From assembly GCF_017498545.1 (NCBI RefSeq), contig NZ_CP071793.1:7308256-7372255 (forward strand): a stretch of DNA of 64,000 bases, given 5' to 3'. The notes under the pieces were generated by a model. It saw only the letters and a program-made list of their open reading frames with translations, was not told the origin of the DNA and searched no databases. The position numbers were made by a program, and so were the translations under genes. This document shows, one piece after another, positions 5,356 to 47,477 of the stretch (position 1 is the first letter of the stretch; every line of letters starts with the position of its first letter). The DNA is from Sulfidibacter corallicola. GTDB taxonomy: Bacteria; Acidobacteriota; Holophagae; Acanthopleuribacterales; Acanthopleuribacteraceae.

Positions 5356-5434
5356 ACCGTCCATCAACGATACGAGGCCGAACCCGCCTCGCGAAAGCGC
5401 CCGACGGGCGTGTTTCATCAGGGAGTGACCGCTC

Positions 5435-6850: not shown

Positions 6851-7545
6851 GTCCACAAAAACTGTCCACTAAAAACACGAAAAAACACGAAAAAGCAGAT
6901 CCCGGCAGGGTCGGTTCCTTCCCGCGGTGGACTGCGAACGACCTATGTTTTTTGTCCACGAATCACACGGACTGACACGGATAAATAGGACCCATGGACG
7001 CCACACGGCAGATACTCTGGGGAGAGTCTGAACTTAAAATCAAACGTATCAAGTGCTTATGCAGATTTAGTTGTCATTTTGAATTATATGGGTTTGTGTT
7101 CCGTTCCGTGGCCAACAAAGCAATCGGCCTCGAACGGAATGACTGTGTTTGTATTCGTGTGGATCTGTGTGATCCGTGGACAAGTCGTCAACTGCCGTGC
7201 GTGACGAGTCGGCAGGCAGGAACCAAACCCGTCGGCCCTTTGGGCAAGGTTCAAGTAATCAGATCTAACATACTGAAAAACAACAGAATGGGTTCCGGAA
7301 ATCCATCGAGAAAGCCATCGCCTCACTGGGCAGGCCATGCAGGAAGTTACCATTTTGTGTTTTTGTCCACGAAAGACACGAAAAGACACGAAAAACCTCA
7401 TGAGTAGCTTCCTAGATCTCAGAGGTAACCTACTGAGAAACAACAGAACAGACTCCAGAAATCCATCGAGAAAGCCATCGCCTCACTGGGCAGGCAATGC
7501 AGGAAGTATCCATTTCGTGTTTTTTCGTGTTTTTAGTGGACAAAA
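6851..7545. repeat. Low-GC noncoding element bounded by 22-bp inverted repeats (TGTCCACTAAAAACACGAAAAA at 6863-6884, and its reverse complement at 7521-7542). It contains a tandem duplication of a ~110-160 bp unit (7261-7420 and 7415-7546) and three copies of a phased 10-bp dimer, ACACGAAAA(A/G)ACACGAAAAA.
   Basis: Direct reading. The unit CAACAGAA..CCGGAAATCCATCGAGAAAGCCATCGCCTCACTGGGCAGGC(C/A)ATGCAGGAAGT occurs twice. GTCCAC/GTGGAC motifs recur throughout. GC is far below the flanking genes. Confidence 0.7.
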
Positions 7546-7574
7546 AACGCGCGCCCCTTGCGAGGCGCGCGTCG
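7541..7574 (-). terminator. Intrinsic terminator for the metalloprotease gene (GC hairpin ACGCGCGCCCC..GAGGCGCGCGT followed by a T-run on the minus strand)
   Basis: Perfect 10-11 bp GC stem with a 5-nt loop. AAAAAA at 7542-7547 is T6 on the minus strand, immediately 3' of the stop at 7597. Confidence 0.6.
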
Positions 7575-7596
7575 ATTCATCCGATCGTGACCGGGA

Positions 7597-9831
7597 TTAT
7601 TCGTAGTTCGCTTCCAGCGTCAAACCGGAGTAGGAGCGGTAGGCGCGGATGCTGAGGTACCAGGTACCGGCAGTGGGGTTGGTGAACTCGCACTGCTCGT
7701 TGTTGCCGTTGCGGTAGGGACGACAGTCGTAGCTGCTGGTGGTGGGTTGCTGGCCGTATCTCACGTAGAGATCGGCGTCGCCGCTGCCGCCCGAAATGCT
7801 GACGACCAGGCTGCTGGCGCACTCGGGCACTTCGAAGCGGTAGTGTTCCCAGCTACCGCGGCTGTCACTGATGTTGGACACGGAGCCGCCATCGGCGCAG
7901 TCACCGCCGGTGTCTTCGTCGAAAGAGGCCGTCAGGGTCAGGCCAGCGAACGAGCTGTAGGCGTAGATGCCCACGTGCCAGACGCCGGAATCGGGGGTGT
8001 CGAAAGTGCAGGTCTCGTTGCTGGAAGACGACCAGGAACGGCAGTCGAACTGGCTGCGGCTGGGCTCGCTGCCGCGGCGGATGTACATGTCCGCATCGGG
8101 ATCGTTGCCGCGCAGGGCGAACGTCAGGTTGGTGGCACCGGCGGGAACTTGGATGGTGTAGCGCAGCCAGGTTCCGGTGCCGGCGCTCAGGCCGCTGACG
8201 GGCACGCCGTTCTGCAGCTCGTCGCCGCCACCGCCGCCGCCGTCGGTGACGGTGACGCTCGCGGAGTGCGTATCGCTGGCACCGTCGTCGTCGGTGACCG
8301 TCAGGGTCACGGTGTAGGTGCCCGCCGAAGCGTAGGTGTGGTTGGGGTTGGTGGCGCTGGAAGTGCCGCCGTCGCCGAAGTTCCAGGAACGGGAGGCGAT
8401 GGTGCCGTCCGAATCGGAGCTGGTGTCGGTGAAGCTGGCGGTCAGGCCGCTGGTGGCGCTGGTGAAGCCGGCCGAGGGCGGGTTGTTTTCGCCGCCACCG
8501 CCGCAGGTGGTGAGGCAGGAGGCGCCGCTGACGCGATTGCGGATCAGGTTGCCGGGAACCGGGCCGAAGCCGGTGGTCAGGTCGATGCCGGCCGAGGTGA
8601 GGTGGCAGTAGCTCATGACGGTGCCGCCGGAAGAGGGCGGTGCCGGACCGGGCGAGCAGTTGCCTTCGGGGGTGTAGCAGTTGTCCAGCGCACCGCCGGG
8701 CCAGGAGCAGCTATGGGTGTGGGGCGAGCCCAGGTTGTGACCCATTTCGTGGGCGACGACGCCGACGGTCCAGGAGTAGTTGGGCAGGTTGCTGTAGCTG
8801 CTGCCGATGTTGCTGTAGGCGTAGCCGTAGTTGCTGTTGCAGAGCACGTTGACCCAGGCGACGCCGCCGAGGCCGCTGCCGCCGCGTGCCAGCAGGTGGG
8901 CCAGGTCGGAGTTGTGGTTCGTGCCCTGGAACTGGTTCAGCGCCTGGGAGGAAGAGGAACGCGAGTAGCTGTCACGGGTCGTCCAGACTTTGGTTTCCTT
9001 GATGGTGGTGGTGATCTGTTCGTTTTGGTAGATGGCCGCCACCACGTTGTACATGCCGGTGACCCAGTTCAGGGTTTGGTTCACGTTGCTGCCACGCTCT
9101 TGGTACAGCGCGTAGTCGCACTCCAGGTAGACCTGGACGCAGTTGTCCACCAGGGCCGTGCGGTTCTCATTGGCGAGAATCTCGGCGACTTCCTCGTGGT
9201 AGTTGGGGCCTTCCTGGGCACCGCAGATGAAGACCTGGTTGTCGGTCAGGTCGCCCGTCTTGTAGAAGACGTGGCGGTCGACGCGCAGATCGTCGCGGTA
9301 GGGGCCGAGCACCATGTCGCCGTCTTCCGGCGTGTGAATCACGGCCATGACCTTGTCTTCGTAGAGACTGATGGCGACCATGGTGTCTTCGCGACCGTCG
9401 ACGATGCCGCGGTAGTGCACGCCATCCACGTAGTCCACGAGGGCGCCCTCGGAAGTGGTGGCCACGAAGTCGTCGCTGAGTACTTTCGCGCGTACCAGAT
9501 CGAGCGACAATTCGCGAGCCATCTTGTTTTCGGTGGCCGGCAGCGGAAGCTGCAGGCGCAGGTGTTCGGGACCCTCTTCGACGAGGGCGGCGAGCTGGTC
9601 GTGGTCCGGCGACAGCCAGCGCGCATCGGCCACGGGTGCCCGTTTACCCCAATGTAGGGGATGAGATTGATCGGAATCTGCGGAGAGGGGGGACGCGACG
9701 GGGAATTCGGTACCTGCGTCGTATTTGTGCGTCACCTTTTCGGCGACGCTGAGAAGTTCGCCCGCGGATGCGAACGGCAATTGAACGAAAAAGAAAATCG
9801 AACACACAAAACTCATGAAAGCAAGCCTCAT
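7597..9831 (-). CDS. Secreted zinc metalloprotease (metzincin, reprolysin/M12B-like) with C-terminal PKD and pre-peptidase C-terminal (PPC)-like domains
   Basis: ATG at 9831 with a GGAGGAA RBS. N-terminal signal peptide MRLAFMSFVCSIFFFVQLPFASA. HEMGHNLGSPH (HExxHxxGxxH). PKD-like segment WNFGDGGTSSATNPNHTYASAGTYTVTLTVTDDDG. Repeated C-terminal beta-domains. Confidence 0.75.
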   Translation of the reverse strand: MRLAFMSFVCSIFFFVQLPFASAGELLSVAEKVTHKYDAGTEFPVASPLSADSDQSHPLHWGKRAPVADARWLSPDHDQLAALVEEGPEHLRLQLPLPATENKMARELSLDLVRAKVLSDDFVATTSEGALVDYVDGVHYRGIVDGREDTMVAISLYEDKVMAVIHTPEDGDMVLGPYRDDLRVDRHVFYKTGDLTDNQVFICGAQEGPNYHEEVAEILANENRTALVDNCVQVYLECDYALYQERGSNVNQTLNWVTGMYNVVAAIYQNEQITTTIKETKVWTTRDSYSRSSSSQALNQFQGTNHNSDLAHLLARGGSGLGGVAWVNVLCNSNYGYAYSNIGSSYSNLPNYSWTVGVVAHEMGHNLGSPHTHSCSWPGGALDNCYTPEGNCSPGPAPPSSGGTVMSYCHLTSAGIDLTTGFGPVPGNLIRNRVSGASCLTTCGGGGENNPPSAGFTSATSGLTASFTDTSSDSDGTIASRSWNFGDGGTSSATNPNHTYASAGTYTVTLTVTDDDGASDTHSASVTVTDGGGGGGDELQNGVPVSGLSAGTGTWLRYTIQVPAGATNLTFALRGNDPDADMYIRRGSEPSRSQFDCRSWSSSSNETCTFDTPDSGVWHVGIYAYSSFAGLTLTASFDEDTGGDCADGGSVSNISDSRGSWEHYRFEVPECASSLVVSISGGSGDADLYVRYGQQPTTSSYDCRPYRNGNNEQCEFTNPTAGTWYLSIRAYRSYSGLTLEANYE

Positions 9832-10470
9832 GGAGTTCCTCCAACTTGTGATGTCTCTGCTTCAGTTCTGCACAATGCCCTCTGTGCGCGGTCACCGAGG
9901 AGCGGGATCGCGCAAGCGACAAAAATACCCAGTCGATGCGGTCCGGCATCGAAGGCACGATCTAATAAGGGCTGGTATGTGACTGAATCGATGGAAATGA
10001 GTAACCAGGACGGAGCATTTGAAGGATCGTAGATATCGAACGACCGGCCAGCATTCGGTCGTCAACCTGAAATGGATCGTGTGATGAATGTAAGAACCTG
10101 GACGTGGCGATGAGCGATGGAAATGACCTGATTGGTGCGACCCGCCAGCGATGGGTCGTCGAAAACAAGGGTTCAGGAAGTGACTGATCCTTGGTGAGGA
10201 TCATACACAGCCCGCCCGACGGTCCAAAGTTCCAATCATTGAAAGCTTGTGAATATCACAAAATTAACAAAACTTTTGCTTGCGAAAAGGTGTGTTTTGG
10301 GCGTGGTTGACGCAAGAAGGCCGCGACAATCCCGGTGTCACCCAAGGAATCGCGGCCTTTTGAAGGGGGTTTCGGACCCCGCGGGGCCTCCCGCGTGGCG
10401 AACGAGAGGTCCCCAAATGTGATGCCTGTCGCAGCCGACGCGGGCTGGAAACGTCTTGCGAGGTGCCGAA

Positions 10471-10968
10471 TCAATCGCCTTCGGGCAGGCTGTACGTGAA
10501 CGTATAGGAGTGGGCACCCTTGTCGATGTGGATCAGGAAGGTGCCGGACAGCCCTTTCAGCGCACCGGTTGCGGAATCGGGCACCACGGTGATGTCTTGG
10601 GATTGGCCGCCGCCGCTCATGGTGGCGCTGTGTTGGAGCACGAAGCTGCCTTCGCGGCCGTGCAGTGTGCCGGTGATGCGTTCCATGGCCACGTAACCGG
10701 CGGAACCCTTGACCTGGGTGATGGCGCTGACCATCAGGCCCCAACTGGTGGCTTCGAGATCGCCCGACAGCGTTTTGTCGATGACCATGGTGCCGACCGT
10801 GGTGTCGCCTTCGCCGTGTTCCAGGGGCTGCGGTGTCAGTTTCACTTCGAACGTTCCGGTCGCTTCTCTTGTCATGTCGGTTCCTTTCTTGGTGGGCTTG
10901 GTGTCCTGTGCCGAGAGGAAGGCGCAGGTCACCAGCATGAGGGCGATGCCCAGTGATTTGCGGTACAT
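10471..10968 (-). CDS. DUF3224-family small secreted protein (start taken at an internal ATG that gives a signal peptide)
   Basis: Signal-like MYRKSLGIALMLVTCAFLSAQ. The remainder matches the general DUF3224 pattern (G.F.V......G...... then GS.G...E). The ORF track extends the start to 11052. Confidence 0.45.
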   Translation of the reverse strand: MYRKSLGIALMLVTCAFLSAQDTKPTKKGTDMTREATGTFEVKLTPQPLEHGEGDTTVGTMVIDKTLSGDLEATSWGLMVSAITQVKGSAGYVAMERITGTLHGREGSFVLQHSATMSGGGQSQDITVVPDSATGALKGLSGTFLIHIDKGAHSYTFTYSLPEGD

Positions 10969-11174
10969 ATGAATCCTTTCGGAAGGGGTCGAACAGCGGA
11001 GCGGCACGGTCGCTGCCGGGTTCGAACGGCTGAAGATCGTGTCTAAAAGCATGCTACCATTTCGGTTGTCGCTCAGCGTACCGGAACGGAAGAGGTTGTG
11101 GCGAATCAGACGGATTCGCCGCGGTTTTCGGGAAGGTCACGACCCGCGCAGCGGGTGATTCAAGGAGGGGTTCG

Positions 11175-11741
11175 ATGTCTCCCCACATTCTGGAAGTGTA
11201 CCGACGCCAGGCGCGCAACAACGCCCTGTGCAATTTGCGCCTCTTTCGGGCCTGCAAGGCGCTGACCCCGGAAGCCTATCTGGCTCCGCGCGCTTCGTTC
11301 TTCGGCTCCATCCACAACACGCTGGATCACATTCTCCTGGTGGACGAGCGCTACCTGCTCCGCCTGGCCGGCGTGGTTCCCGGGCCGGCTCGCGCCGAAG
11401 GATCGCTTTACCTCGATCTGGAATCGTTGCGTGAAGCGCGTCACCGGGTCGATCGCGAAATCTGGGACCGAGTGACAGCCTCGACCGAAGCCGATCTATC
11501 GAAGCCGGCGGTGCTGGTGGACGATCATGGCCAGACCGTCAGGGAACCGCGGCTCATCGTGTGGGAGCACCTGTTTCACCACCAGGTCCATCACCGCGGT
11601 CAGGTTCACGGGCTATTGTCCCAGACGTCGGTGGCACCGCCCCAACTTGACGAATTCTTCCTGGGCATCGATCACCAGCGCCGTGTGGCCGACTTGGCCG
11701 AGTTACGGGACCTGGGTTTTTCCGACATCGCGAAAGCGTGA
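11175..11741 (+). CDS. DinB/YfiT-like metal-dependent hydrolase family protein (DinB_2)
   Basis: ATG at 11175 preceded by AAGGAGGGG. HxxxH-type motif FHHQVHHRGQ. Size ~188 aa. Confidence 0.6.
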   Translation: MSPHILEVYRRQARNNALCNLRLFRACKALTPEAYLAPRASFFGSIHNTLDHILLVDERYLLRLAGVVPGPARAEGSLYLDLESLREARHRVDREIWDRVTASTEADLSKPAVLVDDHGQTVREPRLIVWEHLFHHQVHHRGQVHGLLSQTSVAPPQLDEFFLGIDHQRRVADLAELRDLGFSDIAKA

Positions 11742-11875: not shown

Positions 11876-12802
11876 TCAGTCCAGGTTCAATCGCCAGTGG
11901 CAATCGTGGACGCCATCCTCGTAGAAATCCATCAACCTGCCACAAGTGACGAAACCCGCCGCCTCCAGGCGCGGACCCACCGCCGGAATGTCCGAAGGGA
12001 AGCTGCAGAAGACGACGCGCGCCTTCCATTCCCGCGCCTTGTTGATCGCCTTTTTGAGGTTTTTTTCGGTAAACATGCTGCCGTCTTCGGTGTATTGCCA
12101 GTCCAGGCCATAGGCGTCCTGGGTTTCGGGAATTTCGGAAATCCCCGTCAATCGCGCTCCTGGCACCACACCGTATTCCGTTTCCTCGCCCTCTTCCGCG
12201 GAGGGATCCTGCTCTGCGGGCAGCGGTGGAAGACCTTCCGGGTCGGCGCTTTCGTGTCCGGTCGCCTCCATACGGTGTTCTTCGGGGCAGGCCGGGCGTT
12301 CCTGCACGGGTTCCAGTGCGCGCGCGTAATAGAGCATCGCTTCGCCGGGGCGGTAGAAGTCGCGGTGGGTCAATTCGGGCTCGAAACCCAGCGATTCGTA
12401 GAACCGCCGCGCGTCGGCGTAGACGTCGCCGTCCTCCGGGTCGCGGTAATCGCTGGTGGTCAAAAAGATCTTGCGGGCGCCGCGCTGCTGGAGGCGCTCG
12501 AACAGGCAGTCCAGCATTTTGCGTCCCCAACCGCGCGACCGGTAATCTTCGTCCAGGTAGGTCCAGGATAACCAGTAGGTTCGGTCGCTGGCCTCGACTT
12601 CGTTGAAACCCGTGGTGCCGACGATGTCGCCATCCACCTCGAGCACGAATTTATTGCGCAGACCCATGGTCTTGTAGGTTTGTCGGGCGACTTCGGCGTC
12701 GTCTTCGTCGTGGTCCTCGATGATGACCAGGACTTCTTCGACATCGGCACCTTTCATATTTCGGAACTTCCAGTCCGCGGCGTCGTGAACCTCTTTGCTC
12801 AC
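11876..12802 (-). CDS. GNAT-family N-acetyltransferase with an additional C-terminal domain of unknown function. Last gene of the ACP operon.
   Basis: GTG start at 12802 with an AAGGAAA RBS. The N-terminal ~165 aa have a GNAT-like layout (VGTTGF...RSRGWGRKML...FLTTSDYR). Confidence 0.55.
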   Translation of the reverse strand: MSKEVHDAADWKFRNMKGADVEEVLVIIEDHDEDDAEVARQTYKTMGLRNKFVLEVDGDIVGTTGFNEVEASDRTYWLSWTYLDEDYRSRGWGRKMLDCLFERLQQRGARKIFLTTSDYRDPEDGDVYADARRFYESLGFEPELTHRDFYRPGEAMLYYARALEPVQERPACPEEHRMEATGHESADPEGLPPLPAEQDPSAEEGEETEYGVVPGARLTGISEIPETQDAYGLDWQYTEDGSMFTEKNLKKAINKAREWKARVVFCSFPSDIPAVGPRLEAAGFVTCGRLMDFYEDGVHDCHWRLNLD

Positions 12803-12874
12803 ATGGTTTCCTTTCCGGCAGCGTGCCCGGTGCAGTGATCGGGCCGCACCCGTTGGGGCTCACGGCGGTTCCTG

Positions 12875-13423
12875 CTAGGATGCGCGTCGTGGCGCCCCCT
12901 TGGAATGAGGCATCGGGCGGGCGGGAACGCCAATCGCCGTGACATCTGGCGGGATGTTCGTGACCACCAGAGAATTGGCGGCGATCATGGCGCCGTCGCC
13001 CACGGTCACCGGGCCGAGGATTTTCGCACCGGCTCCGATGAACACGTCGTTGCCGATACAGGGCGCACCCTCTCTGCCCGGACTCATGCCCAGGGTGACA
13101 TCGTGCATCATACCGCATCGCTCACCGATTTCGGCAGCGGGATGAATTTTGATGTTGCCGGCGTGAATCAGGTGCAGCCCTTCGCCGATTTTGGCCCGTC
13201 GATCGATCTCGATACCGTTGACGATCCCGATCGAGAAAAACAGAAGCCCGTAGATTTTGCCGACGAACCAGCGCCAGGGCGGGAAGCGCCGCTCCAGGGT
13301 CCAAGCTCCGAAGCGGTAGATCGCGATGGCCCACCAGGCGGTGTTGCGCAAACGCGCACCGTGCAGGTGGTAATCCTCCCGCCAGGTACGCCACAATCCT
13401 TTGCCATTGCGGTGCTCACCCAT
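12875..13423 (-). CDS. Serine O-acetyltransferase-like hexapeptide-repeat acyltransferase (CysE/EpsC-like)
   Basis: Left-handed beta-helix hexapeptide repeats (IHAGNIKIHPAAEIGERCGMMHDVTLG...IGNDVFIGAGAKILGPVTVGDGAMIAANSLV). The SAT-like N-terminus has a WAIAIYRFGAW motif. It overlaps the ACP stop by 8 nt. Confidence 0.65.
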   Translation of the reverse strand: MGEHRNGKGLWRTWREDYHLHGARLRNTAWWAIAIYRFGAWTLERRFPPWRWFVGKIYGLLFFSIGIVNGIEIDRRAKIGEGLHLIHAGNIKIHPAAEIGERCGMMHDVTLGMSPGREGAPCIGNDVFIGAGAKILGPVTVGDGAMIAANSLVVTNIPPDVTAIGVPARPMPHSKGAPRRAS

Positions 13424-13679
13424 TCAATAACTCGAAAACCTTGGCGGCGATGCCGCTGATGCTGGTGAAGGTCGGGTCGAACAGAACCTCGTCCGGCAGG
13501 CGCAGGTCGTAGCGCTCCTCGAGGAACGCCACGACTTCCACGGCGCCGGTGCTGTCGACGTAGCCTTCTTTCCACAGGTGGAGGTCGCGATTGAAATAGG
13601 TATCTTCCGCGGCCACGTGGAAGTGTTTACGGATATAGGTCTCCAAATCGAGGGAGATGGAGGCGGTCGTATGGCTCAT
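13416..13679 (-). CDS. Acyl carrier protein (stand-alone, 87 aa)
   Basis: GGAG RBS 5 nt upstream. Size and helical pattern fit an ACP, with a candidate phosphopantetheine serine in GYVDSTGAVEVV. Embedded in the operon with the AMP-ligase. Confidence 0.55.
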   Translation of the reverse strand: MSHTTASISLDLETYIRKHFHVAAEDTYFNRDLHLWKEGYVDSTGAVEVVAFLEERYDLRLPDEVLFDPTFTSISGIAAKVFELLNG

Positions 13680-13693
13680 GTGTGCTCCGGGAA

Positions 13694-15037
13694 TCAGGAA
13701 AAAATCAAATCGAATGAAGTGGGTACGCGATAGCGACCCGCATGGATGAGACGATCCACAGCGGTCGGCTCGGTGTGGAACAGTTCGCAGAATCTTCGAT
13801 GGAGATCGTCGCCCACCACGCCGCGATCGACCAGAGCGGCGAGCGTGCCCCCGACCTGGGTCGAATCGCCGATCTGGGCGCGCACCTTGGGTCGGTCGTA
13901 AATTTCTGCGGGGATGCGGTCACCCATGACCGCACGGGCCAGCGCACTCTTGGCGCCGTCACTTTCCAGCAAGGGTTCGGGGAGGGCAGTATACACTTCG
14001 GCACAATGGGCATAGGGCTGAAGCGTATCGCATCCAAAATGGTGAAAAATACCGACTTCGCGGTCACCGCTGTCCAAGCCCGCCACCAGGAATCGGCGCA
14101 GCCGGCCAGCTTTCAGGCGCGGCAACGGGTAATAGGTCTGGCCGCGGTAGGGGACCGGGCTGTAATCGGCGACCAATTCGTTCATGGTGTCGCCGGTCAG
14201 GAGGAGCGGGGGTTCGTCGTCCGAAGCGGTGTCCTGCAATATCCGCTCGCGAAGGTAGGCGCCGATGGCGGCGTTCACCAGGCCGCAATGGACGTTGAAA
14301 TCGCGCCAATCCTGTCCGCGAACCAGCACCGGATCCAAGAGCGAGACCAGTTGGTCCGGTTCGAAATGGATTTCGTGGAGGGGGACGTCCAGGTGGCGCG
14401 CCAGACGCCGCGCGAAATGGAGATCTTCGCCCTCGCCCACCGTGCGGCCTTCGGCGCCCAGCGAGAAGGTGACGCCCTCGAACGGGCCCAGCCATTCGCG
14501 CGTCAGGACGGCGATGGTGCTGCTGTCCAACCCGCCGGAAAGGGTGACGAACAATCGGCGTCCGGTGCAAAGGGTGCGCAACCGTTCGAACGTATCTCCC
14601 AGCCCTTTGCGCACATCGCCGGCGAGGTGGGTCAGCGGCTGGGCCTCGCGGCCGCCGTAGGGCAGTCTGCTGTAGCGTTCCAGGCGCCAGGTGCGTTGCG
14701 CCACGTTCAGGTAGGCCCAATAACCGGAGGGGACGGACCAGATGCGCGCCAGCTCGATGCCCGCGTGAACCAGGTCCCAGAGGTAGTTGCCGCTGTGGAC
14801 GTGACCCGCGTCATCCACGGCGAAAAACAGTTTATTGACGCCCAGTGGATCGCGCGCGAACCAATGGCCGCCCTGGTCGTCCCGCTGGTGGATGGCGAAT
14901 TGGCCGCGAAGGCGATGCAGTATGGCGGAGGGATCCGCCGCCCCTGCCAAATCCAGTTGGTGGCACCAGTCGCCCGTGGTGGGATCTACGATGAAGTTGG
15001 TGACCGGTGCCTGTTGTCGTGGCGGGTCGCAACTCAT
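13694..15037 (-). CDS. Asparagine synthetase (AsnB)-family amidotransferase homologue. It has the PP-loop ATP pyrophosphatase domain, but its N-terminal glutaminase-like region lacks the Cys1 nucleophile position.
   Basis: Real start is the ATG at 15037, which overlaps the aminotransferase stop as ATGA. The long ORF-track extension to 16390 is compositional junk. SGGLDSS PP-loop. RDPLGVNKLFFAV resembles the AsnB RD.iG.KPLYY motif. The protein begins MSC rather than MCG. Confidence 0.7.
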   Translation of the reverse strand: MSCDPPRQQAPVTNFIVDPTTGDWCHQLDLAGAADPSAILHRLRGQFAIHQRDDQGGHWFARDPLGVNKLFFAVDDAGHVHSGNYLWDLVHAGIELARIWSVPSGYWAYLNVAQRTWRLERYSRLPYGGREAQPLTHLAGDVRKGLGDTFERLRTLCTGRRLFVTLSGGLDSSTIAVLTREWLGPFEGVTFSLGAEGRTVGEGEDLHFARRLARHLDVPLHEIHFEPDQLVSLLDPVLVRGQDWRDFNVHCGLVNAAIGAYLRERILQDTASDDEPPLLLTGDTMNELVADYSPVPYRGQTYYPLPRLKAGRLRRFLVAGLDSGDREVGIFHHFGCDTLQPYAHCAEVYTALPEPLLESDGAKSALARAVMGDRIPAEIYDRPKVRAQIGDSTQVGGTLAALVDRGVVGDDLHRRFCELFHTEPTAVDRLIHAGRYRVPTSFDLIFS

Positions 15038-16209
15038 GAACAGCACCCCGCCAGGACACGTCGAAAGATCGGCAGGGCCCGATTCAGCATATCGTCGTTG
15101 CAGGTCAGGGAAATGCGGAAATGACCGGGGTGGTGGAACAGGGTGGAGGGCACCACGAGCACGCCCTCGCGGGCCAACATGCTCGCGAAATGGAAGTCGT
15201 CGGTTTCCGGTGCCCGGGGGTACATGAAGAACGTGGCCTGATTGGTTTGCACCTCGTAACCCGCTTTGCGCAATTCGCCGAGAATCAAGTCGCGACGTTG
15301 GCGGATGCGCTCGAGATCGGGTGTCTCGTCCAACAATTCGCGGATGGCGATCTGCATCAGTGCCGTGGGCGTGCAGAACCCCATGATCCGGCACAGCCGC
15401 TCCATGATGTGGGCGTAGTGGTCGGCCCGCTCCATGCGGGGACTGACGGCCACGTAGCCGATGCGTTGACCCTGGATTTGCAGGCTCTTCCCGAAGGAGT
15501 AGACGATGCAGGTGTTGTCGTAGAACTCGGCCGGCGAGCAAAAGGCTTCCGGTTCCAACAGGATGCCGCGGTGACACTCGTCGGAGACCAGCACCGGTCG
15601 GGTGGGGCTCTCGTCGAGGATCCGTGCCAACTGGCGCAGTTCGTCGGCATGGTAGATCAGGCCGGTGGGGTTGGCCGGTTGGGACAGGATGATGCCCTGT
15701 ACCTGGTCGTCCAACGCCTCGCGAATGGCCTCCAGGTCCAACCGCATGGTGTCCCGGCACAGCGGTACGAACACCGGTTCCAGACCCAGGTTCGCGAGGT
15801 ACAGGGGGTAGTCGAACCAGCACGGCGTAATGACCACGACCTTGCTTCGGTAGCTCTTGCGCGACATGGAGCGGAAAACCAGGTTGAGCGCGGCCATGGA
15901 GCCCGGGGTCAACACGATCTGGCGCCAGTGAAAATTCAGTCGATGGCTCTTGCCCAGGTGCTGGGCGACCAGGCGCCGGGTGATGGTATTGCCGCCGTAG
16001 GGCGTGTATTGGAGGTTGAGTCGGTTCTGGGCTTCGAGCGCGGTGCGCATGGCGTTGACCGCCTGGGGAATCGGGCCGTCGTAGGGATTGGCGTACGCGA
16101 GATCGCAAAATTGGCGGCCGACCTTCTGAATGGTTTCCAATCGAAGGGACTCGAACCGCTCTTGTGCATCCAGGTAGTGCAGGACGTCTTCTTCGAGGAA
16201 TCTTCTCAT
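15034..16209 (-). CDS. Class I/II (fold type I) PLP-dependent aminotransferase
   Basis: NPTG motif (SQPANPTGLIY) and lysine motif SFGKSLQIQGQRIGY. Start ATG at 16209 overlaps the ligase stop as ATGA. Confidence 0.75.
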   Translation of the reverse strand: MRRFLEEDVLHYLDAQERFESLRLETIQKVGRQFCDLAYANPYDGPIPQAVNAMRTALEAQNRLNLQYTPYGGNTITRRLVAQHLGKSHRLNFHWRQIVLTPGSMAALNLVFRSMSRKSYRSKVVVITPCWFDYPLYLANLGLEPVFVPLCRDTMRLDLEAIREALDDQVQGIILSQPANPTGLIYHADELRQLARILDESPTRPVLVSDECHRGILLEPEAFCSPAEFYDNTCIVYSFGKSLQIQGQRIGYVAVSPRMERADHYAHIMERLCRIMGFCTPTALMQIAIRELLDETPDLERIRQRRDLILGELRKAGYEVQTNQATFFMYPRAPETDDFHFASMLAREGVLVVPSTLFHHPGHFRISLTCNDDMLNRALPIFRRVLAGCCS

Positions 16210-17720
16210 GGGTGCACCTGCTCTCGAGCGATCTTCCCCGTTGCGGTGCGGGGGAAGCTGGCGTGAACTTGGAGTTTGGCCGGCACCATGTAGCGCGGCA
16301 TATGGCCTTTGCAGTAGGCCAACAGATCCCGGGGCTGAAAGGCCTCGGGATCGCGCGGCACCACGTGCAACACCAGGCGAACGCTCCCATCGCGCTCGGT
16401 TTGCGGCTTCGCGATGGCCTCGTGGGCCAACCCCGAGGCGTAGGCGATCTCTTCCACTTCTTCGGGGTTCAGCCTGAAGCCGTTTATTTTGAGCATTTTG
16501 TCGCCACGGCCCACGAAGGTGAAGTAACCCGCCGCATCGCGCCTGACGCGATCTCCCGAGTGCACCATGCGTGTGCCGGCGCGGTCGCTGAAGGGATCCG
16601 GTCGAAAGGTGGCGGCGGTTGCCCGCGGATTGTTCCAGTAGCCCATGGCCACGGTCGGCCCCGAGTGGACCAGCTCGCCGATCTCGTCGGGCCCGCAGGC
16701 ATCACCCTGGGGGGCGAGAACTTCGAGTCGGGTTTCGGGAATCGCGATGCCCATCGAGGTGGGCCGGAGATCCAACTCCTCGGGAGGCAAATAACTGGAT
16801 CGAAAGGCTTCGGTGAGGCCGTACATGAGGAATATTCGGGTGTGCGGTAGCCGCTGGCGGATTTGGTCGAGGACCGAGACGGGGAAGGCACCGCCCGTGT
16901 TGGTCAAGTAGCGAAGATGGGGAAAGTCCATGGTGCGAAACGGGGAGAAGCGGCCGACCAGTTGTAGCCAGAGCGGCGGCACGCCCGCCAGACCCGTGAT
17001 GCGATGCGCGATCAGGGTGCGACAGATTTCGGCCGGCAGACCGGTGCGTTCCAAAACCAAGGTCGCGCCTCGGTAGACGCTGGTCAGCAGTTGGTTGAGC
17101 CCGTAATCGAAATTGAAGGGCAGCACGCTGAGAATGCGTTCCTCGGATGAGAGTTCCAGATACCGGGCCACGATGCGGGTCCCAGCCTCCAGATTGTCGT
17201 GCGACAGGCAAATGCCCTTGGGTTTTCCGGTCGAGCCGGAAGTGTAGAGAACGATCGCCGGATCGCCGCCTTCGATCTGCGGTGGTTCGTCGAAATGGCT
17301 CGGAGCCGCTTCGAGCTGTTCGGGAACGAGCAATACGTGTCCGTGAATGGATTCGGGCTTCAGGCGCGCCAATCGACGGGGTTCCGTGACGAAAAACTGG
17401 CAACCGCTGTCGTGTCCGATATGGGTCACCTGTGCGTCGCGCAGCTCCGGAAAAAGCGGGACCGCCACACCGCCGGCCAGCCAGGTGCCGTACAGCGCCG
17501 CGACCAGGGCGACCGACTTGTCCAAAAAGAGGCAGACCCGATCGCCGAACTGTAATCCGTTCTTTTGCAGGGAGGCGGCATAAGCGGCCGCCATCTGGTC
17601 GAGCCGTCGGTAATCGACGATGCTCGTGCCGTCGACAATCGCCGGATGGTGCGGCTTTTCCAGCCCCATTCGACGCAAGTGTGCCGTGGTTCGACTTATG
17701 AGAATGGGCAAATTTTCCAA
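16206..17720 (-). CDS. AMP-dependent synthetase/ligase (acyl-CoA or acyl-ACP synthetase family). First gene of the operon.
   Basis: YTSGSTGKPKG AMP-binding motif. YGLTE; GDRVRRDAAGYFTFVGRGDKMLKINGFR. C-terminal TGKI. AT-rich promoter-like region directly upstream (17721-18060). Confidence 0.8.
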   Translation of the reverse strand: MENLPILISRTTAHLRRMGLEKPHHPAIVDGTSIVDYRRLDQMAAAYAASLQKNGLQFGDRVCLFLDKSVALVAALYGTWLAGGVAVPLFPELRDAQVTHIGHDSGCQFFVTEPRRLARLKPESIHGHVLLVPEQLEAAPSHFDEPPQIEGGDPAIVLYTSGSTGKPKGICLSHDNLEAGTRIVARYLELSSEERILSVLPFNFDYGLNQLLTSVYRGATLVLERTGLPAEICRTLIAHRITGLAGVPPLWLQLVGRFSPFRTMDFPHLRYLTNTGGAFPVSVLDQIRQRLPHTRIFLMYGLTEAFRSSYLPPEELDLRPTSMGIAIPETRLEVLAPQGDACGPDEIGELVHSGPTVAMGYWNNPRATAATFRPDPFSDRAGTRMVHSGDRVRRDAAGYFTFVGRGDKMLKINGFRLNPEEVEEIAYASGLAHEAIAKPQTERDGSVRLVLHVVPRDPEAFQPRDLLAYCKGHMPRYMVPAKLQVHASFPRTATGKIAREQVHP

Positions 17721-18065
17721 TTCCTAAACCTCTGAGCAATGCCGATAAATGATGGGAGAGAGAAACTATCGAGGGGCCTGTGCGAGATTTAATGAGAGCG
17801 TGTAGAATAGGGAAAATTCAAATTTTTACAACTGCTGTACCTGTGCAGGGTAGCACTTATTTGTTGGTGGACGCAATGGTGAGTTCGGGATGTCTATGAA
17901 TAAACTTGAAATTTTTTCTGTGGCGAATGTCACGCTTTCGAGACCTCTCATGAAAAATAAGCGTGAAACACCACCGTTTTGGCTCAGGAAATTTCCTAAA
18001 CGCGGAATTGGCGAAGAATCGCGTCTCGATGGGGAATCTTTGGGCACCCGTCATTGGGCCGGGCT

Positions 18066-19424
18066 TCAGGGGTTCGCGCCCGATTGGCTGCTGGATCCAG
18101 CCCGTTCCTTGCCTTGTCGCTGACGTCGTACTTCGTAGCGTTGGTACAACGCCTGGCCTTTCTCTTCCTGGCCGGTGGCCTTATAGACGGCGTAGAGCCG
18201 GTAGAACAGCATGTTGGGCGACACCCACAGAAAGCGGTCGGCCCGTTCCAGGTGGTGTTGGCAGCTTTGGGCCTCGCGGGCTTCCCAGGCTTGCAATCCG
18301 GCGCGGTAGTGGTAGTGGCCCAACCCGTCTTTGACCACCGCGGCCCATAGAAGAACGATCAAACCCGCCGCCGCCCATCCGGATCGGAATCGTTTGGAAA
18401 GGAGCTGGGGCACCCAAACTATCGTCAGCCATCCCAGACACATACCCATGCAAAATGCGAGGAAGATGCCGATCCCGTAGAGCTCCGAATAGATCAACCC
18501 GACCGCGGCGGTCATGGCCCAGAATCCCAGTTCGACGGCCAGTGGCACCGGTTCGAGACCGTCGGGTAGGGCGCGCTTCTGCGGTTCTCGATTCTCCTTG
18601 GCGGGCGAACTCATGCTGAGCGCGTCGGTGGGACAGGCCGCCACACAGGACATGCACCCGGTACAGCCGATCGCGGCCACGTGGAAACGCGTGTTGACCA
18701 TGCGCGAGACATCGAGGTCCATGGGACAGGCCGTGCTGCAATTACCGCAAGCCGTGCAGTCTCCGGTCCGCCGGACCTTGTAGCGGGCGGCGCGCTGCCC
18801 CAATCCGAAAAGGACGCCCCATGGGCACAGTGTTCGGCAGAATACGCGTCTTCCCAAAAAAAGAGGCATGATCGCCAATACCATTAATAATGTAAGAGAG
18901 CCTTGGAGCCAGCCTGGCAATAATTCCCACGGCTCGGTCAATGTCAAATCTATCGAAACCGGCGGAAGTGTGCGCGTCCATCGATTGGCGATCGCCTCCC
19001 AAGCGAAATACCAGATAAGCACGAAGCCGGCGGCGAGCGGGCCGAATCGCAACGGGAATCCGCGCATGCGAATGCCCAGTTTGTGGTAGAGCGATTCCAG
19101 CAGGTCGTAGCTCAACCCGATGTGACAGATCCAGCCGCAGAACCAGCGACCCCAGACCAGGGTCAACCCCAAAAAGGTGAGGAAGAACAGGCCGCCGGCG
19201 GTGAGCACGTTGCGTTCGATGAAATTGCGGAAGAGCTCCTGCATGTCGATGGCGCCGATGTGGTGCCAGCCGCGCGCATACCACAACCACAGATGCAGTC
19301 CGATGAGTCCGTGGACCACGCCGAAGGCCACCAGCCGGCGCCACGTCAGGCGGCGCATCCTGATGGAAATCGGCGTACGCGGGGAAGAGGGTTCGGCGGC
19401 GTGTTCGGCAAGAGGTCGGGTCAT
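18066..19424 (-). CDS. Polytopic membrane 4Fe-4S polyferredoxin (NapH/MauN/CcoG-like)
   Basis: Two CxxCxxCxxxCP clusters (CTACGNCSTACP, CTGCMSCVAACP). Several hydrophobic helices. I place the start at the internal ATG at 19424 with a GAGGA RBS. The ORF track starts at 19568, and its first 48 residues look non-coding. Confidence 0.6.
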   Translation of the reverse strand: MTRPLAEHAAEPSSPRTPISIRMRRLTWRRLVAFGVVHGLIGLHLWLWYARGWHHIGAIDMQELFRNFIERNVLTAGGLFFLTFLGLTLVWGRWFCGWICHIGLSYDLLESLYHKLGIRMRGFPLRFGPLAAGFVLIWYFAWEAIANRWTRTLPPVSIDLTLTEPWELLPGWLQGSLTLLMVLAIMPLFLGRRVFCRTLCPWGVLFGLGQRAARYKVRRTGDCTACGNCSTACPMDLDVSRMVNTRFHVAAIGCTGCMSCVAACPTDALSMSSPAKENREPQKRALPDGLEPVPLAVELGFWAMTAAVGLIYSELYGIGIFLAFCMGMCLGWLTIVWVPQLLSKRFRSGWAAAGLIVLLWAAVVKDGLGHYHYRAGLQAWEAREAQSCQHHLERADRFLWVSPNMLFYRLYAVYKATGQEEKGQALYQRYEVRRQRQGKERAGSSSQSGANP

Positions 19425-20111
19425 GGGGCAATCCTCGACATGGCGGGGTGGCGCGCGTATGCCGCGCAACGATCGGATCGATGGACCGCCGATCGTGGGG
19501 GTATCGAACGCGACGTGAATCGGAAATGGATTTTTTCCCAATCTGCGGTCACGGTGAGTTTTCGCCACGGAGGAAACGGAAATTAGACGCTGTTCGCGCT
19601 GTGTTTTATGGATTTATGTGCTCGTTTCCCTCTGTGGTTCCTGTCCGCGGTGGTTTGGAAGGACCTTGGTTTGCAGAACGATTTGACGGGACACGTTCCC
19701 GACTCGCGTCGAGCTACCATTAAATCACGAAACTTTCGGATGGCCGCGCTCTTTAGCCCAACCAGCGGTGGGTAGGGTCCGGTGCCACGTCCCATGACCC
19801 GTGGTTTCGGTTAGGATCGGCTCGGGCGAGGAGACCGATCTGCCGTGCCGGCACCGGAGATCCGGCTCATCGCACCGGGCTCCTCATGGGTGCTGCGGCA
19901 TCCGGTCTTTCAACCACCACAAATTCAAGCGGGAAGGCATTCTTGTCGTATGATTGGAAGATCTCCCCCCTCAAAGACTCAATGGTTTCGATCATCTCGA
20001 TGTTGCCGCTTCTCGGCAGGGCTCCTCGTGCTAGAATGTCCGGCCGCTCTGCCATACCTGGCGTGGCTGTAAATACCTCGATGTTCGATAAATCACGATT
20101 ATTGTGGAAAG

Positions 20112-23015
20112 TTGTTGACCGTGACTGTGACCAAGGTCCCCGATGCACAACGAAATCTTTTTCTTCGCCAGCTCCACGGTGCCGCCTTCTACCCCGGCAC
20201 CTCCAAACGCGCCCTGAGTCGGCTGTTGTGGCGTGCCGGCGAGTACGGGTTCGCGGAGGCTGGAACCTCGATCCTGGAAGCGCTCAAATCTCGCTATCCG
20301 ATGGTGTTGTATTGCGGGGCCTGGGCCGCGGGGCGGTGTGAGATCGATGGTGCTCGAACTCGTCTGGACTCGATTCAGCGAACGCAGCAACTTCCCGATT
20401 ACGTTCGCTTCATGGCGGGAGAAGCGTGGCGCCATCTCTTGACGCCCGATGAGAAAGCGACTTTGCGAGACCGTGGGTTCGGTGATCTCCCGGCCTGGTT
20501 TCGCGAAGTCTGCCAAGAGCCCGATTCCTTCGTGATGCGATTCCGCGAAATGCTCTCGCAACAGGCGGGGTTTCATCACGCCGCTCTCATCTGGGATTTG
20601 TACCGGATCGACGATCCGGAAGATCGGCGGGTGCGGCATTGCCTGCTCGCCGCGCTTACGGAGTTGCCACTGCGACCCCCGCTCTTCCGATTCCTGCGGC
20701 GAATTTTCAAGGCGGCGATCTTCCGCGGCGATGCGGAAGTGTTCGGAATCCTCGCCTATCGTTTCGAAGTGGAGCGTGCGCAGCGGGTTTCGGGGTGGGG
20801 TTGGGTGACCGACGGGCCCCAGGTCTTCAAGGTCCGGCTGCCTGACGAGTTCGCCAAGGACGGTTGTAAAATCGGCTTTCTCTCGTCTTCCAAAGATTAC
20901 TTGCGGCGCGCGTCCTGGCGCACGCTGAAGCGGATGGCCGAAACCGACGGTGCCACCTACGTTCGGTTTGCGGCGGAGCTGCTGCGTCACTATCGCGACG
21001 AAGACGGCAAAGAACCACGGAGCTATCGCCACTACGACGGCATCGAGGAAACCTGGCACGAAGTGGTGGCCGACCGTTTCGCCGCCTGTTTTCTGATGAA
21101 CCAGGTCATCTACGGGCGGAGCCCGCGCTACCGGCGCCCCCCCGGCCGCCTTCACTGGCGCTGTCGCGGCGATTGGGTGCCCGGCGATGCACCGCCCGAC
21201 GTGCGCGAGGAGGCCTTTCCCGAACTTTGGGATCAACGCCCCGATTTGTTGCGCATGCTTCTGCTGCGCGGTCGTTGCCACCGGGTTCACCAGTTCGCGG
21301 CAAAGGCGCTCGCCGATCGGGCCGACACGACCTGGACCCTGCAGGATCTGGTCGCGCTGCTGAACGGGCCCTTTCCGGAAACGCGGGCCCTGGGCTTCCA
21401 CTTGGTGCGGCATCGCCATGCCGACCTGATCGATGAGCCGGAGATCGCCACGGCGTTGCTGTTGTGCCCGGAACCCGAGGCCCATCGCCTCGCACTCGAT
21501 CGCGCGCCCGATCCCTCCTGGCCGGCCGGTCACCCAACCGTGGTGGTGCGTTGGGCGCTCAGCACCCATCGCGACGTTCGACGAGCCTGTCTCGACTGGC
21601 TGGCCACCAACCCGCTGCAGCCCGATTTCGCCGAACACATTTTGCACCGTCTGACCGTGCGGCTGGCCTCCGGCTTGTCCGGGACCCTCGAGACGGCCTG
21701 GGCTCGGGATGTGGCCGCGATCGTCGAAACCCTGGGTGAACGCGTCGAAGCCACGGGGGACCTGGCGCGGGCGGGCTTCGCGCCCAGTGAGACCGTCGCC
21801 TTGGAGATGATGGACCATCCTTGCGAGGACGTGGGACGCCTTGCCCTGAGGCTTTTGGCGCGTTTCGCGGCAACGCCCGAATCGCTTTCCGATGGCTTTT
21901 GGATGGCGGTCTGGCGGGCCGAGGACCGCTACGAATTGGGTTTGGACTTGTTGGGCCGCCTGCCGGATTCGGCACTCCTGCGTCACGCCGCCGCGCTGGT
22001 CTTCTTTTGCCGCGATTCGCGCGCGGCCGTTCGCGAGCGTGCGGGCCTGCTGCTGGATCGGCTGTATTCGATTTCCCCGGAGTGCCGCGAACTGGCGGTT
22101 CAACTGCTGTGCCGCGATCTGCTGCGGGCACCCGATTCGCCGGAGGCGCACCAGGCGCGCCTGGAGGTCCTGTGCGGTCCCCTGCAGTGCGGCCTCGTCG
22201 CGGTGGACGATGCCCTGCTGCGACGCCTCTTGGCGGTGCCCCATGCCGCGGCACACCGGCTCGCGGCACAGATCATCCGCCATTTTCGCGATGTGGCGGA
22301 TTTCGAAGAGCGCGACCTGGTGCGGCTGGCGGATCACGTCTTGCCGGAACTGCGGGTGTTCGCGGCCTCGGCCGCCCTGCAGTGGTTCGAGCCGGAGACG
22401 CGACGTTGCTCCGCCGTCTGGGCATCGTTGTTGGACAGCGAATGGGAGGATACCTTCGAATTCGCCACGGCCCTCTTCGAAGAGCTTTTGGCGGAAGGCA
22501 AGCTGTCGGCCGATGCCTGGCTCGCATTGCCTCGTGCCAAAAGTGACCGGGGTCGGGATTTCAGCCGGCGATTGCTCGATTTCGCGCTGAATGACGTCGG
22601 ATCTTGGCCGCATCTGGTCGAACTCGCGAATCGTGCATCGGGTGCGCTTCTCGAACGAATCGCCGTCCGGATGCTGGCCGAGGTGGACCGGGCGCCCAAA
22701 CACGTGGCCGAATTCGGCCCCGTCATGGGTGCCCTGTTGACGAACCGCGCCGCTTCTGGAACATTGCGTCGCCGGGCCCTGGAACCGGTTTTGGACGGCA
22801 TGGTCGGTGGCCGGTTGGCGCCCTCCGTCGGTTGGTCCTGGTTGAACCGCTTACAGAGCCGGCTGCCCGCCAGGCGGCGCGGCGAATTGGTCGCGGCCCT
22901 CGCGGCCAAAGGGCTGGTGTGGGCACCGGGCGCCAAGAAAAAATCTCCGCCTTTCGGGTTGATGGTACAGCGGGTTCCCGTTCCCGTTCGCGAAAGCCGG
23001 CGCGTCACGACCTGA
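20112..23015 (+). CDS. Large (967 aa) predicted all-alpha/HEAT-ARM-like protein of unknown function. Candidate partner or effector of the downstream retron-type reverse transcriptase.
   Basis: TTG/GTG start region. Very strong GC3 bias along the whole plus-strand frame. The overlapping 890-aa minus-strand ORF is R/Q/G/P-rich and looks like an antisense artefact. Leu/Ala/Arg-rich with helical periodicity. No catalytic motif recognised. Ends 494 bp before the RT ORF on the same strand. Confidence 0.55.
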   Translation: MLTVTVTKVPDAQRNLFLRQLHGAAFYPGTSKRALSRLLWRAGEYGFAEAGTSILEALKSRYPMVLYCGAWAAGRCEIDGARTRLDSIQRTQQLPDYVRFMAGEAWRHLLTPDEKATLRDRGFGDLPAWFREVCQEPDSFVMRFREMLSQQAGFHHAALIWDLYRIDDPEDRRVRHCLLAALTELPLRPPLFRFLRRIFKAAIFRGDAEVFGILAYRFEVERAQRVSGWGWVTDGPQVFKVRLPDEFAKDGCKIGFLSSSKDYLRRASWRTLKRMAETDGATYVRFAAELLRHYRDEDGKEPRSYRHYDGIEETWHEVVADRFAACFLMNQVIYGRSPRYRRPPGRLHWRCRGDWVPGDAPPDVREEAFPELWDQRPDLLRMLLLRGRCHRVHQFAAKALADRADTTWTLQDLVALLNGPFPETRALGFHLVRHRHADLIDEPEIATALLLCPEPEAHRLALDRAPDPSWPAGHPTVVVRWALSTHRDVRRACLDWLATNPLQPDFAEHILHRLTVRLASGLSGTLETAWARDVAAIVETLGERVEATGDLARAGFAPSETVALEMMDHPCEDVGRLALRLLARFAATPESLSDGFWMAVWRAEDRYELGLDLLGRLPDSALLRHAAALVFFCRDSRAAVRERAGLLLDRLYSISPECRELAVQLLCRDLLRAPDSPEAHQARLEVLCGPLQCGLVAVDDALLRRLLAVPHAAAHRLAAQIIRHFRDVADFEERDLVRLADHVLPELRVFAASAALQWFEPETRRCSAVWASLLDSEWEDTFEFATALFEELLAEGKLSADAWLALPRAKSDRGRDFSRRLLDFALNDVGSWPHLVELANRASGALLERIAVRMLAEVDRAPKHVAEFGPVMGALLTNRAASGTLRRRALEPVLDGMVGGRLAPSVGWSWLNRLQSRLPARRRGELVAALAAKGLVWAPGAKKKSPPFGLMVQRVPVPVRESRRVTT

Positions 23016-24882: not shown

Positions 24883-24938
24883 GGCATGCGGCAACGTCAA
24901 TACCTCGGCTCACGGGCACTTCGAAGCGGTTTGTTTCG

Positions 24939-28519: not shown

Positions 28520-28554
28520 GTGCCTCGCTCTCGAAGGAACCTCGATACATGAGA

Positions 28555-28584
28555 GGCCGGGTCTCGTACCCGGCCTTTTTTATT
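28555..28584 (+). terminator. Intrinsic terminator (GGCCGGGT-CTCGT-ACCCGGCC followed by TTTTTTA)
   Basis: Perfect 8-bp GC stem plus T-run 36 bp after the stop at 28519. Confidence 0.7.
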
Positions 28585-47451: not shown

Positions 47452-47477
47452 AGCCTTTTGAAAATGGAGATTTGAAA

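Follow-up and report, generated by a model that had tools for sequence, protein, structure and literature searches.

The stretch analysed here, a 64-kb window of the Sulfidibacter corallicola genome (Acidobacteriota, Holophagae; coordinates are those of the window unless a locus is named), carries a compact block of six genes at 11876–17720. Its first four, for an adenylation enzyme (ligase), an aminotransferase, an AsnB-like enzyme and an acyl carrier protein (ACP), constitute a core that recurs in at least eight bacterial phyla. We read this core, with moderate confidence, as a portable building-block cassette whose product would be a tailored aminoacyl-S-ACP, passed on by a transferase specific to each context; here, two lineage-specific acyltransferases are added. 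Gene content, order, conservation, motifs and the variability of partners are seen directly, and each catalytic step is what we infer.

In the open reading frame (ORF) list of the window, 11876–17720 is filled by six minus-strand ORFs, as an initial annotation of this DNA had proposed; coordinates and domain matches both agree. Transcription runs from the ligase through the aminotransferase, AsnB-like enzyme, ACP and serine acetyltransferase (SAT)-like hexapeptide transferase to the GNAT. The features, with lengths in amino acids (aa) or nucleotides (nt), are:

16206–17720, minus strand: adenylation enzyme, putative amino acid–ACP ligase, 504 aa, TTG start (AMP-binding, E = 6e-72)
15034–16209, minus strand: class-I pyridoxal phosphate (PLP) aminotransferase of aspartate aminotransferase (AspAT) fold, 391 aa (Aminotran_1_2, E = 4e-47)
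13694–15037, minus strand: glutaminase-less adenylating enzyme of the AsnB superfamily, 447 aa (Asn_synthase, E = 3e-16, residues 160–239 only)
13416–13679, minus strand: dedicated acyl/aminoacyl carrier protein, 87 aa (weak PP-binding match, NCBIfam ACP models, invariant Ser)
12875–13423, minus strand: left-handed β-helix (hexapeptide) acyltransferase, CysE/EpsC-like, 182 aa (Hexapep, E = 8e-12)
11876–12802, minus strand: two-domain GNAT N-acyltransferase, 308 aa, GTG start (GNAT, E = 1e-12)
17721–18065, minus strand: AT-rich intergenic leader/promoter region, 345 nt, 5' of the ligase gene (GC content)

The genes are tightly packed. Read from the sequence, ATGA overlaps join ligase to aminotransferase (16206–16209) and aminotransferase to AsnB-like gene (15034–15037); a 14-nt gap (13680–13693) with GGAG ahead of the ATG separates the AsnB-like and ACP genes, and the ACP and SAT-like genes share an 8-nt overlap, ATGGGTGA, at 13416–13423. 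These four junctions had been described correctly, with the fifth left out: a 72-nt gap (12803–12874) between the SAT-like gene and the GTG start of the GNAT gene. A sequence scan detects no terminator-like site on the coding strand within the block, and the NCBI annotation holds identical 447-aa (AsnB-like) and 308-aa (GNAT) products.

To place the block in a wider context, we used an alignment of the AsnB-like family to search a single genome from each GTDB species, which yielded 67 loci. Ligase, aminotransferase, AsnB-like enzyme and ACP lie in that order on one strand in 44/67, and a partial core is present in 11 more, mostly at contig ends or with a split gene. The hosts, mostly metagenome-assembled genomes (MAGs), belong to Myxococcota, Acidobacteriota (Holophagae, Vicinamibacterales), Planctomycetota, Gemmatimonadota, Rokubacteria, Chloroflexota, Gammaproteobacteria and a spirochaete; cultured carriers among the Actinomycetota include Streptomyces canus, Nonomuraea, Virgisporangium, Cryptosporangium and Asanoa. 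When all neighbouring ORFs are clustered, no further family accompanies the core in more than 11 loci. Beyond the window, the complete six-gene arrangement is found only in Acanthopleuribacter pedis (locus L005) and a Holophagae MAG (L010), where the flanks are unlike those of the window (a TetR regulator upstream; an extracytoplasmic function (ECF) sigma factor and a Ser/Thr kinase downstream). Because it recurs amid different flanks, the six-gene block is a self-contained unit, and the initial view of a compact, ACP-centred block behaving as one unit, for which synteny in other genomes had been suggested as a check, is borne out by these two relatives. The four-gene core reaches far wider: the evolutionary unit is four genes, not six, with the SAT-like and GNAT genes as lineage-specific add-ons. 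For the ligase, aminotransferase, AsnB-like enzyme and ACP of the window, no curated family of NCBIfam or Pfam is matched above its cutoff, and full-text literature searches (AsnB-like/ACP/aminotransferase, exosortase ligase, VinN, organism name) found no description of the four-gene cassette; papers on Pelobacter and on the coral microbiome had no bearing on the locus. The initial annotation could assign the set to no known pathway, and we likewise find that no characterised pathway or curated family covers it.

The strongest argument that the cassette ends in a transferable ACP thioester is the variability of what lies downstream. In five loci (L002, L011, L012, L018 and L025), a single non-ribosomal peptide synthetase (NRPS) module, comprising condensation (C), adenylation (A) and thiolation (T) domains with or without a thioesterase (TE), begins 34–109 nt past the ACP gene. 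A condensation domain straight after the cassette is the clearest case for hand-over of an ACP thioester. The A-domain codes of these modules are DIL[AC]LG[LM]IWK in L002, L012 and L018, which we take to be Gly-like, and VDWFISLGDK in L025, presumably β-Ala-like. In 11 loci the neighbour of the ACP is instead an unannotated protein of about 365 aa, here termed F7, which has no Pfam or NCBIfam match and returns only marginal GNAT-like signals from hhalign and a PDB profile search. An SAT-like transferase follows the ACP directly on the same strand in L003, L005, L010, L027, L031, L044 and L052 as well as in the window, and SAT paralogues lie near the cassette in L008, L009 and L040. Sugar-related genes form a further context. 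Nine actinomycete loci have the cassette preceded by genes for an APH-like kinase, a Gfo/Idh/MocA oxidoreductase, a DegT aminotransferase, a UDP-sugar-dehydrogenase-like protein and a polysaccharide-deacetylase-domain protein of 640 aa, an arrangement that suggests an N-acylated amino-sugar product:

L041, L046, L049, L050, L055, L056, L065 and L066, about 1000–11500 in each: conserved actinomycete cluster of about nine genes (several families)

In Rokubacteria and Gemmatimonadales, the cassette sits among genes for full-length AsnB, heparinase II/III-like, GT4 and deacetylase proteins. Separately, a Gemmatimonadaceae MAG (L017, 8879–13627) encodes, downstream of the cassette and F7, a 1582-aa protein with a formyltransferase domain, a peptidyl carrier protein and an A domain into which a luciferase-like monooxygenase domain is inserted.

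The ligase has the look of an enzyme for amino-acid adenylation rather than of a plain carboxylic-acid ligase. Its top curated match is the exosortase A/XrtA-associated ligase TIGR03098 (505 bits, under the 592.35-bit cutoff), followed by the amino-acid adenylation model TIGR01733 (260 bits, under 317). A check for exosortase-associated sets, proposed with the initial annotation, proves apt in view of this best curated ligase match. Pfam domains in 40 flanking ORFs across the window include no exosortase, PEP-CTERM or exopolysaccharide (EPS) genes, and none of these adjoins the block in L005 or L010. PDB matches are to NRPS A domains, with two-A-domain LgrA chains at the top; LgrA aside, the best relatives are the stand-alone, ACP-loading CmiS6, VinN, IdnL1 and HitB. 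Mapping the Stachelhaus positions by motif gives the code D-Y-N-G-T-[ST]-M-R-S-K, nearly invariant across 43 orthologues, and the equivalents of Asp235 (43/43) and Lys517 (42/43) are those of an NRPS-type A enzyme. In VinN, as in amino-acid A domains, the Asp at this position makes contact with the amine of the substrate (PMC11253843); its invariance argues for an amine-bearing substrate. A polar or acidic side chain on that substrate is suggested by the invariant Arg330 and the polar lining of the pocket; taken across the orthologues, the ligase implies one common amino substrate, plausibly acidic. The initial annotation therefore stands in giving the ACP-centred block a ligase and needs amending in making it one of plain carboxylic-acid type, since the invariant Asp235 and the PDB relatives point to an amino-acid A enzyme.

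Which carboxylate this ligase would thioesterify is less clear-cut. VinN-type enzymes hold an acidic amino acid 'backwards' (PMC11253843, PMC12186527) and are marked by a bulky side chain at GrsA position 236, Ser/Thr at 301, basic residues at 330/331 and a β13–β14 loop one residue shorter (PMC11253843). By these marks, all taken from that study, the ligase carries Tyr236, Ser/Thr301 and Arg330, with Ser and not Arg at 331; its β13–β14 loop, compared with six canonical α-amino-acid NRPS A domains, aligns without a gap and lacks the VinN shortening. The evidence is two-sided because Tyr236 and Ser/Thr301 echo VinN but the loop is unshortened.

The aminotransferase scores 278 bits with PRK06836, under the cutoff of 376, and keeps the PLP Lys (SFGKS), the NPTG Asn and the C-terminal Arg that binds the α-carboxylate (aligned with Thermus AspAT).

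The AsnB-like protein belongs to the AsnB superfamily of synthetases, with an SGGxDS PP-loop and the two-domain fold, and lacks the glutaminase half. Its alignment begins at about AsnB residue 110, so that roughly the first 105 glutaminase residues are absent, and 15 family members share no conserved Cys at the N-terminus; Cys3 of the MSCDPP start in the window protein is not conserved. The initial description of the enzyme as 'Cys-less' was thus right and understated. TIGR01536 (AsnB) gives only 61 bits against a cutoff of 267, there is no complete N-terminal nucleophile (Ntn) glutaminase, and the C-terminal half has diverged beyond what Pfam recognises. Invariant motifs are SGGLDS (the PP-loop), GD.MNE, GDRE and RPK.RAQ, the Lys of the last aligning by eye with the AsnB Lys449 region; the catalytic residues of β-lactam synthetase are the Tyr–Glu dyad Y348 and E382, with K443. 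An AlphaFold2 (AF2) model (predicted local distance difference test (pLDDT) score 86) matches Escherichia coli AsnB, β-lactam synthetase, carbapenam synthetase (CarA) and TsnB9 about equally (Foldseek E = 8e-18 for 1ct9 and 1e-17 for 1mc1; TM about 0.65; 13–20% identity), and a PDB profile search finds β-lactam synthetase 1jgt at 7e-11. The family is small and distinct, 1.84 billion representatives giving 104 clusters at E ≤ 1e-30. A distant clade in Alphaproteobacteria (L058–L064, about 32% identity) is without ligase and aminotransferase and still lies beside an ACP and a full-length AsnB. Two fusion proteins were considered as functional clues and set aside as uninformative: P0261 appears to be a frameshifted read-through of aminotransferase and AsnB-like genes, and P0258 is an unrelated chimera.

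The ACP falls just under the gathering cutoff of the PP-binding Pfam model (18.6 against 20.8 bits) and also matches NCBIfam ACP models, the second best being the cispentacin ACP AmcB; the Ser of its GY(V/L)DS motif, which corresponds to the D-S-x Ser that carries phosphopantetheine at the start of helix 2 in acyl carrier proteins, is invariant in 44/44 orthologues. The SAT-like protein has the hexapeptide fold and is best matched by EPS-related EpsC and WcaB-type models, all below threshold (EpsC, NF041874, 112 bits against 150; cysE, TIGR01172, 97 against 211). The GNAT, which accompanies the cassette only in the window, L005 and L010, is modelled by AF2 at pLDDT 88; its N-terminal domain is similar to RimI, phosphinothricin acetyltransferase and 2r7h, all N-α-acetyltransferases of amino acids and peptides, and the protein further has a disordered acidic linker and an additional domain of about 95 aa at its C-terminus. 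Gammaproteobacteria and Phycisphaerae have full-length GNAT homologues (about 37% identity), which lie in a polyamine-type gene cluster on 4/4 long contigs examined. The cluster comprises an AdoMet decarboxylase (or rhomboid), the GNAT, a 200–236-aa hypothetical protein and a spermine-synthase-like protein of about 510 aa, and one homologue, P0213, is a rhomboid–GNAT fusion. The positions are:

L068, 6602–11131: GNAT-homologue cluster
L070, 7537–11584: GNAT-homologue cluster
L072, 5573–9368: GNAT-homologue cluster
L073, 3871–7542: GNAT-homologue cluster

The polyamine setting of these homologues is a hint that the GNAT family may use an amine or a polyamine as acceptor.

Assembled into a route, these proteins would work as follows. 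The aminotransferase would make or supply a polar, probably acidic α-amino acid from a 2-oxo acid, and the adenylation enzyme would activate this amino acid and thioesterify it onto the 87-aa ACP. The AsnB-like enzyme would then adenylate the remaining free carboxylate of the tethered unit, and the adenylate may be converted to an amide with ammonia or another amine, or to a lactam by attack of the unit's own amine. In Sulfidibacter and the related Holophagae, the free amine would be N-acetylated by the RimI/PAT-like GNAT, and the SAT-like hexapeptide transferase, whose fold class is that of the acyl-ACP-using LpxA and LpxD, would transfer the completed acyl group off the ACP and onto an acceptor encoded outside the locus. 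In other phyla, the product would go to the NRPS C-A-T-TE module, the 365-aa F7 protein or sugar-nucleotide and polysaccharide pathways.

Several points weigh against this route. Position K109 of Thermus AspAT, the Lys that binds the acidic side chain, is a Met in the aminotransferase; AspAT-type recognition of an acidic substrate was considered and gains no backing for an Asp or Glu assignment from this residue, which weakens the case for an acidic substrate and leaves the ligase Arg330 as its remaining basis. A sigma-70 consensus scan of the leader came back empty. VinN-type logic also allows that the aminotransferase could act on an ACP-tethered unit bound through its side-chain carboxylate, and such tethering would change which carboxylate the AsnB-like enzyme meets.

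The initial annotation had favoured a different order of events: acid loaded first and aminated on the ACP. A 2-oxo-dicarboxylic acid (for example 2-oxoglutarate, through its distal carboxylate) would be loaded and aminated there, its α-carboxylate converted to an iso-amide, and acetylation by the GNAT and transfer by the SAT-like protein would follow. Gene order coincides with this proposed reaction order, and the aminotransferase keeps the Arg for an α-carboxylate that a side-chain-tethered unit would still offer. The AmcB match of the ACP counts in the same direction, as does the cispentacin ligase AmcH, which reportedly loads 2-oxoglutarate; a PLP decarboxylase, likewise in need of a free α-amino-acid end, is the partner of the sister family TIGR03098; and Tyr236 of the ligase mirrors the bulky Phe231 of VinN (PMC11253843). 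We nevertheless hold this order to be unlikely. The Asp235 equivalent, invariant in every ligase, argues that the amine is already there at loading; the β13–β14 loop is gapless against α-amino-acid A domains, unlike the shortened loop of VinN; and the stand-alone relatives are amino acid–ACP ligases. A cyclising role for the AsnB-like enzyme, akin to β-lactam or carbapenam synthetase and giving a pyroglutamyl-type or aspartate-derived 4-oxoazetidine-2-carbonyl unit, strikes us as quite improbable. It would fit the missing glutaminase domain, for which the cassette holds no partner glutaminase, the Foldseek ranking of β-lactam synthetase (1mc1, 1jgt) level with AsnB and the 1jgt profile match, and an α-linked acidic aminoacyl thioester would have its amine and carboxylate suitably placed for ring closure. 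Similarity to AsnB is equally strong, however, amidation dependent on ammonia or an amine accounts equally well for glutaminase loss, and we know of no natural product with a 4-oxoazetidine-2-carbonyl or like unit. That the enzyme is a carrier-protein-dependent lactam synthetase, in the extreme case turning aspartate into 4-oxoazetidine-2-carbonyl-S-ACP for placement on peptides, glycans or amines, is a long shot; if true, lactam-bearing metabolites would have an unrecognised route of wide phylogenetic spread.

The other alternatives concern what the block is for and whether it is a pathway at all. A glycan or lipid decoration had been guessed at the outset, and attachment of an unusual amino-acyl amide to a cell-surface glycan of the EPS, capsule or O-antigen-like type, in the manner of DltABCD, AlmEFG or the Vibrio cholerae O1 tetronate cassette, is a possible if not a probable account. 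The family of the top ligase match is associated with XrtA/PEP-CTERM EPS loci and the best SAT-like matches are EpsC and WcaB-type; sugar or polysaccharide genes accompany the cassette in the nine actinomycete loci, Rokubacteria and Gemmatimonadales; and a 44%-identical GNAT homologue adjoins an ORF that by eye is heparinase II/III-like. Yet no glycosyltransferase, flippase, exosortase or sugar-nucleotide gene occurs in the window or beside the block in L005 and L010, all the curated matches are below cutoff, and five or more other loci clearly have the cassette supplying an NRPS module. The guess survives as one of several contexts of the cassette in other phyla, and nothing glycan-like in the window speaks for it here. 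That the six genes are mere neighbours with no common pathway is scarcely credible: the lack of a defined promoter or terminator and the 72-nt gap ahead of the GNAT would allow it, but four junctions overlap or nearly abut, the core keeps its order in 44 loci from different phyla, two relatives share the six-gene order amid unrelated flanks, and synteny effectively refutes it. A portable cassette delivering an aminoacyl-S-ACP to varied transferases remains the reading we prefer.

Upstream of the ligase gene, the initial annotation had placed an AT-rich, promoter-like region. The AT-richness is real: the GC content of 17721–18060 is 45.3%, where the window as a whole has 61.1%, and ranks among the lowest 1% of 340-nt windows. 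As to a promoter, the sigma-70 consensus scan of 17721–18060 gave no site; a weak TTGTAA-16 nt-TATTCT at about 17831–17804 was spotted by eye only. An Rfam scan of the leader found no credible leader or regulatory RNA, and a conserved-operator search found no motif common to this leader and those of L005 or L010.

The genes around the block seem to be unrelated to it. The 4Fe-4S membrane protein, DinB, DUF3224 and M12B protease genes were considered as members of the unit and rejected, none being conserved beside the block in L005 or L010; the first of these, directly upstream with the AT-rich region between (18066–19568, minus strand), encodes a predicted membrane protein of 500 aa with Fer4_5 and 4Fe-4S dicluster domains. 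A convergent megasynthase-like ORF about 6.5 kb away (22–5355, plus strand; 1777 aa) has AMP-binding, a ketosynthase N-terminal (KS-N) fragment, ketoreductase (KR), PP-binding and NAD_binding_4 (terminal reductase) domains and is followed by a 471-aa ORF without a Pfam match (5435–6850, plus strand); no link between the megasynthase-like ORF and the six-gene block was found in L005 or L010. Further along, a reverse transcriptase (RVT_1, 23509–24882) lies within 20112–30428 among large ORFs, those at 20112–23015 (967 aa), 26153–28519 (788 aa) and 28821–30428 (535 aa) having no Pfam match, and Rfam finds no group II intron RNA by this region. Large peptidases are encoded at 7597–9831 (minus strand; likely secreted, M12B reprolysin-like with PKD and PPC), 33486–36923 (minus strand; M36 fungalysin with MAM) and 41749–43866 (plus strand; S9 prolyl oligopeptidase). 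The interval 46000–49500 is low in GC (48–54%), with a TetR-family gene (46861–47451) and short ORFs without Pfam matches, and close to the window end lies a 1773-aa RHS-repeat protein (58635–63956, minus strand).

Identifying the product of the cassette would name one building block in many uncharacterised gene clusters and would also define the role of a glutaminase-less, ACP-coupled AsnB homologue. The cassette plugs into at least three downstream chemistries (NRPS, glycan pathways and free-standing acyltransferases), and it is experimentally tractable, as both S. corallicola and Streptomyces canus are cultured.

Set beside known systems, this one is of a recognisable kind, a variant of ACP-dependent precursor tailoring, and is uncharacterised. 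Its resemblances lie at the superfamily level only (A-domain motifs, PP-loop fold, ACP Ser, hexapeptide and GNAT folds), and it falls outside TIGR03098, AsnB, CysE/EpsC and DltA because all scores are below cutoff and the glutaminase is absent. The XrtA/PEP-CTERM ligase set (TIGR03098, the PLP decarboxylase TIGR03099 and an ACP) is similarly compact and similarly combines an AMP-forming ligase, a PLP enzyme and a small ACP; the cassette differs in having a class-I aminotransferase instead of the decarboxylase, an added AsnB-like enzyme, no exosortase or PEP-CTERM gene nearby and a sub-cutoff score. To our knowledge, the XrtA ligase–decarboxylase–ACP set is itself functionally uncharacterised. 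Like AsnB, β-lactam synthetase, carbapenam synthetase and TsnB9, the AsnB-like enzyme has the two-domain fold and an SGGLDS PP-loop for carboxylate adenylation; unlike them, its N-terminal domain is about 105 residues short and without a Cys nucleophile, its identity to them is only 18–20%, and it forms a separate small family always encoded beside an ACP. AsnB homologues that amidate ACP-tethered carboxylates or use an amine other than ammonia are exemplified by OxyD, malonamyl-ACP formation in glutarimide pathways and PdmN; these enzymes retain their whole length and the glutaminase Cys and work with polyketide synthases (PKSs), unlike the cassette enzyme. The Dlt and Alm systems offer a parallel in the A-type ligase that charges a small carrier with an amino acid (DltA/DltC, AlmE/AlmF) and in the separate transferase, which in those systems decorates an envelope polymer or lipid; here, DltA models score a far sub-cutoff 167–168 bits, no DltB, DltD or AlmG homologue is present and further tailoring on the carrier is proposed. 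In the VinN/VinL/VinO macrolactam starter pathways and AfcQ of AFC-BC11, a stand-alone A enzyme with a bulky residue at 236 and a basic residue in the β13–β14 loop likewise works with an ACP. In those pathways the stand-alone ACP receives an acidic amino acid, which a PLP enzyme modifies while it is carrier-bound and which then passes to an assembly line (PMC11253843, PMC12186527); the cassette departs from this scheme in its unshortened loop, in an aminotransferase as PLP partner, in an AsnB-type enzyme where decarboxylase logic would stand and in the absence of a PKS.

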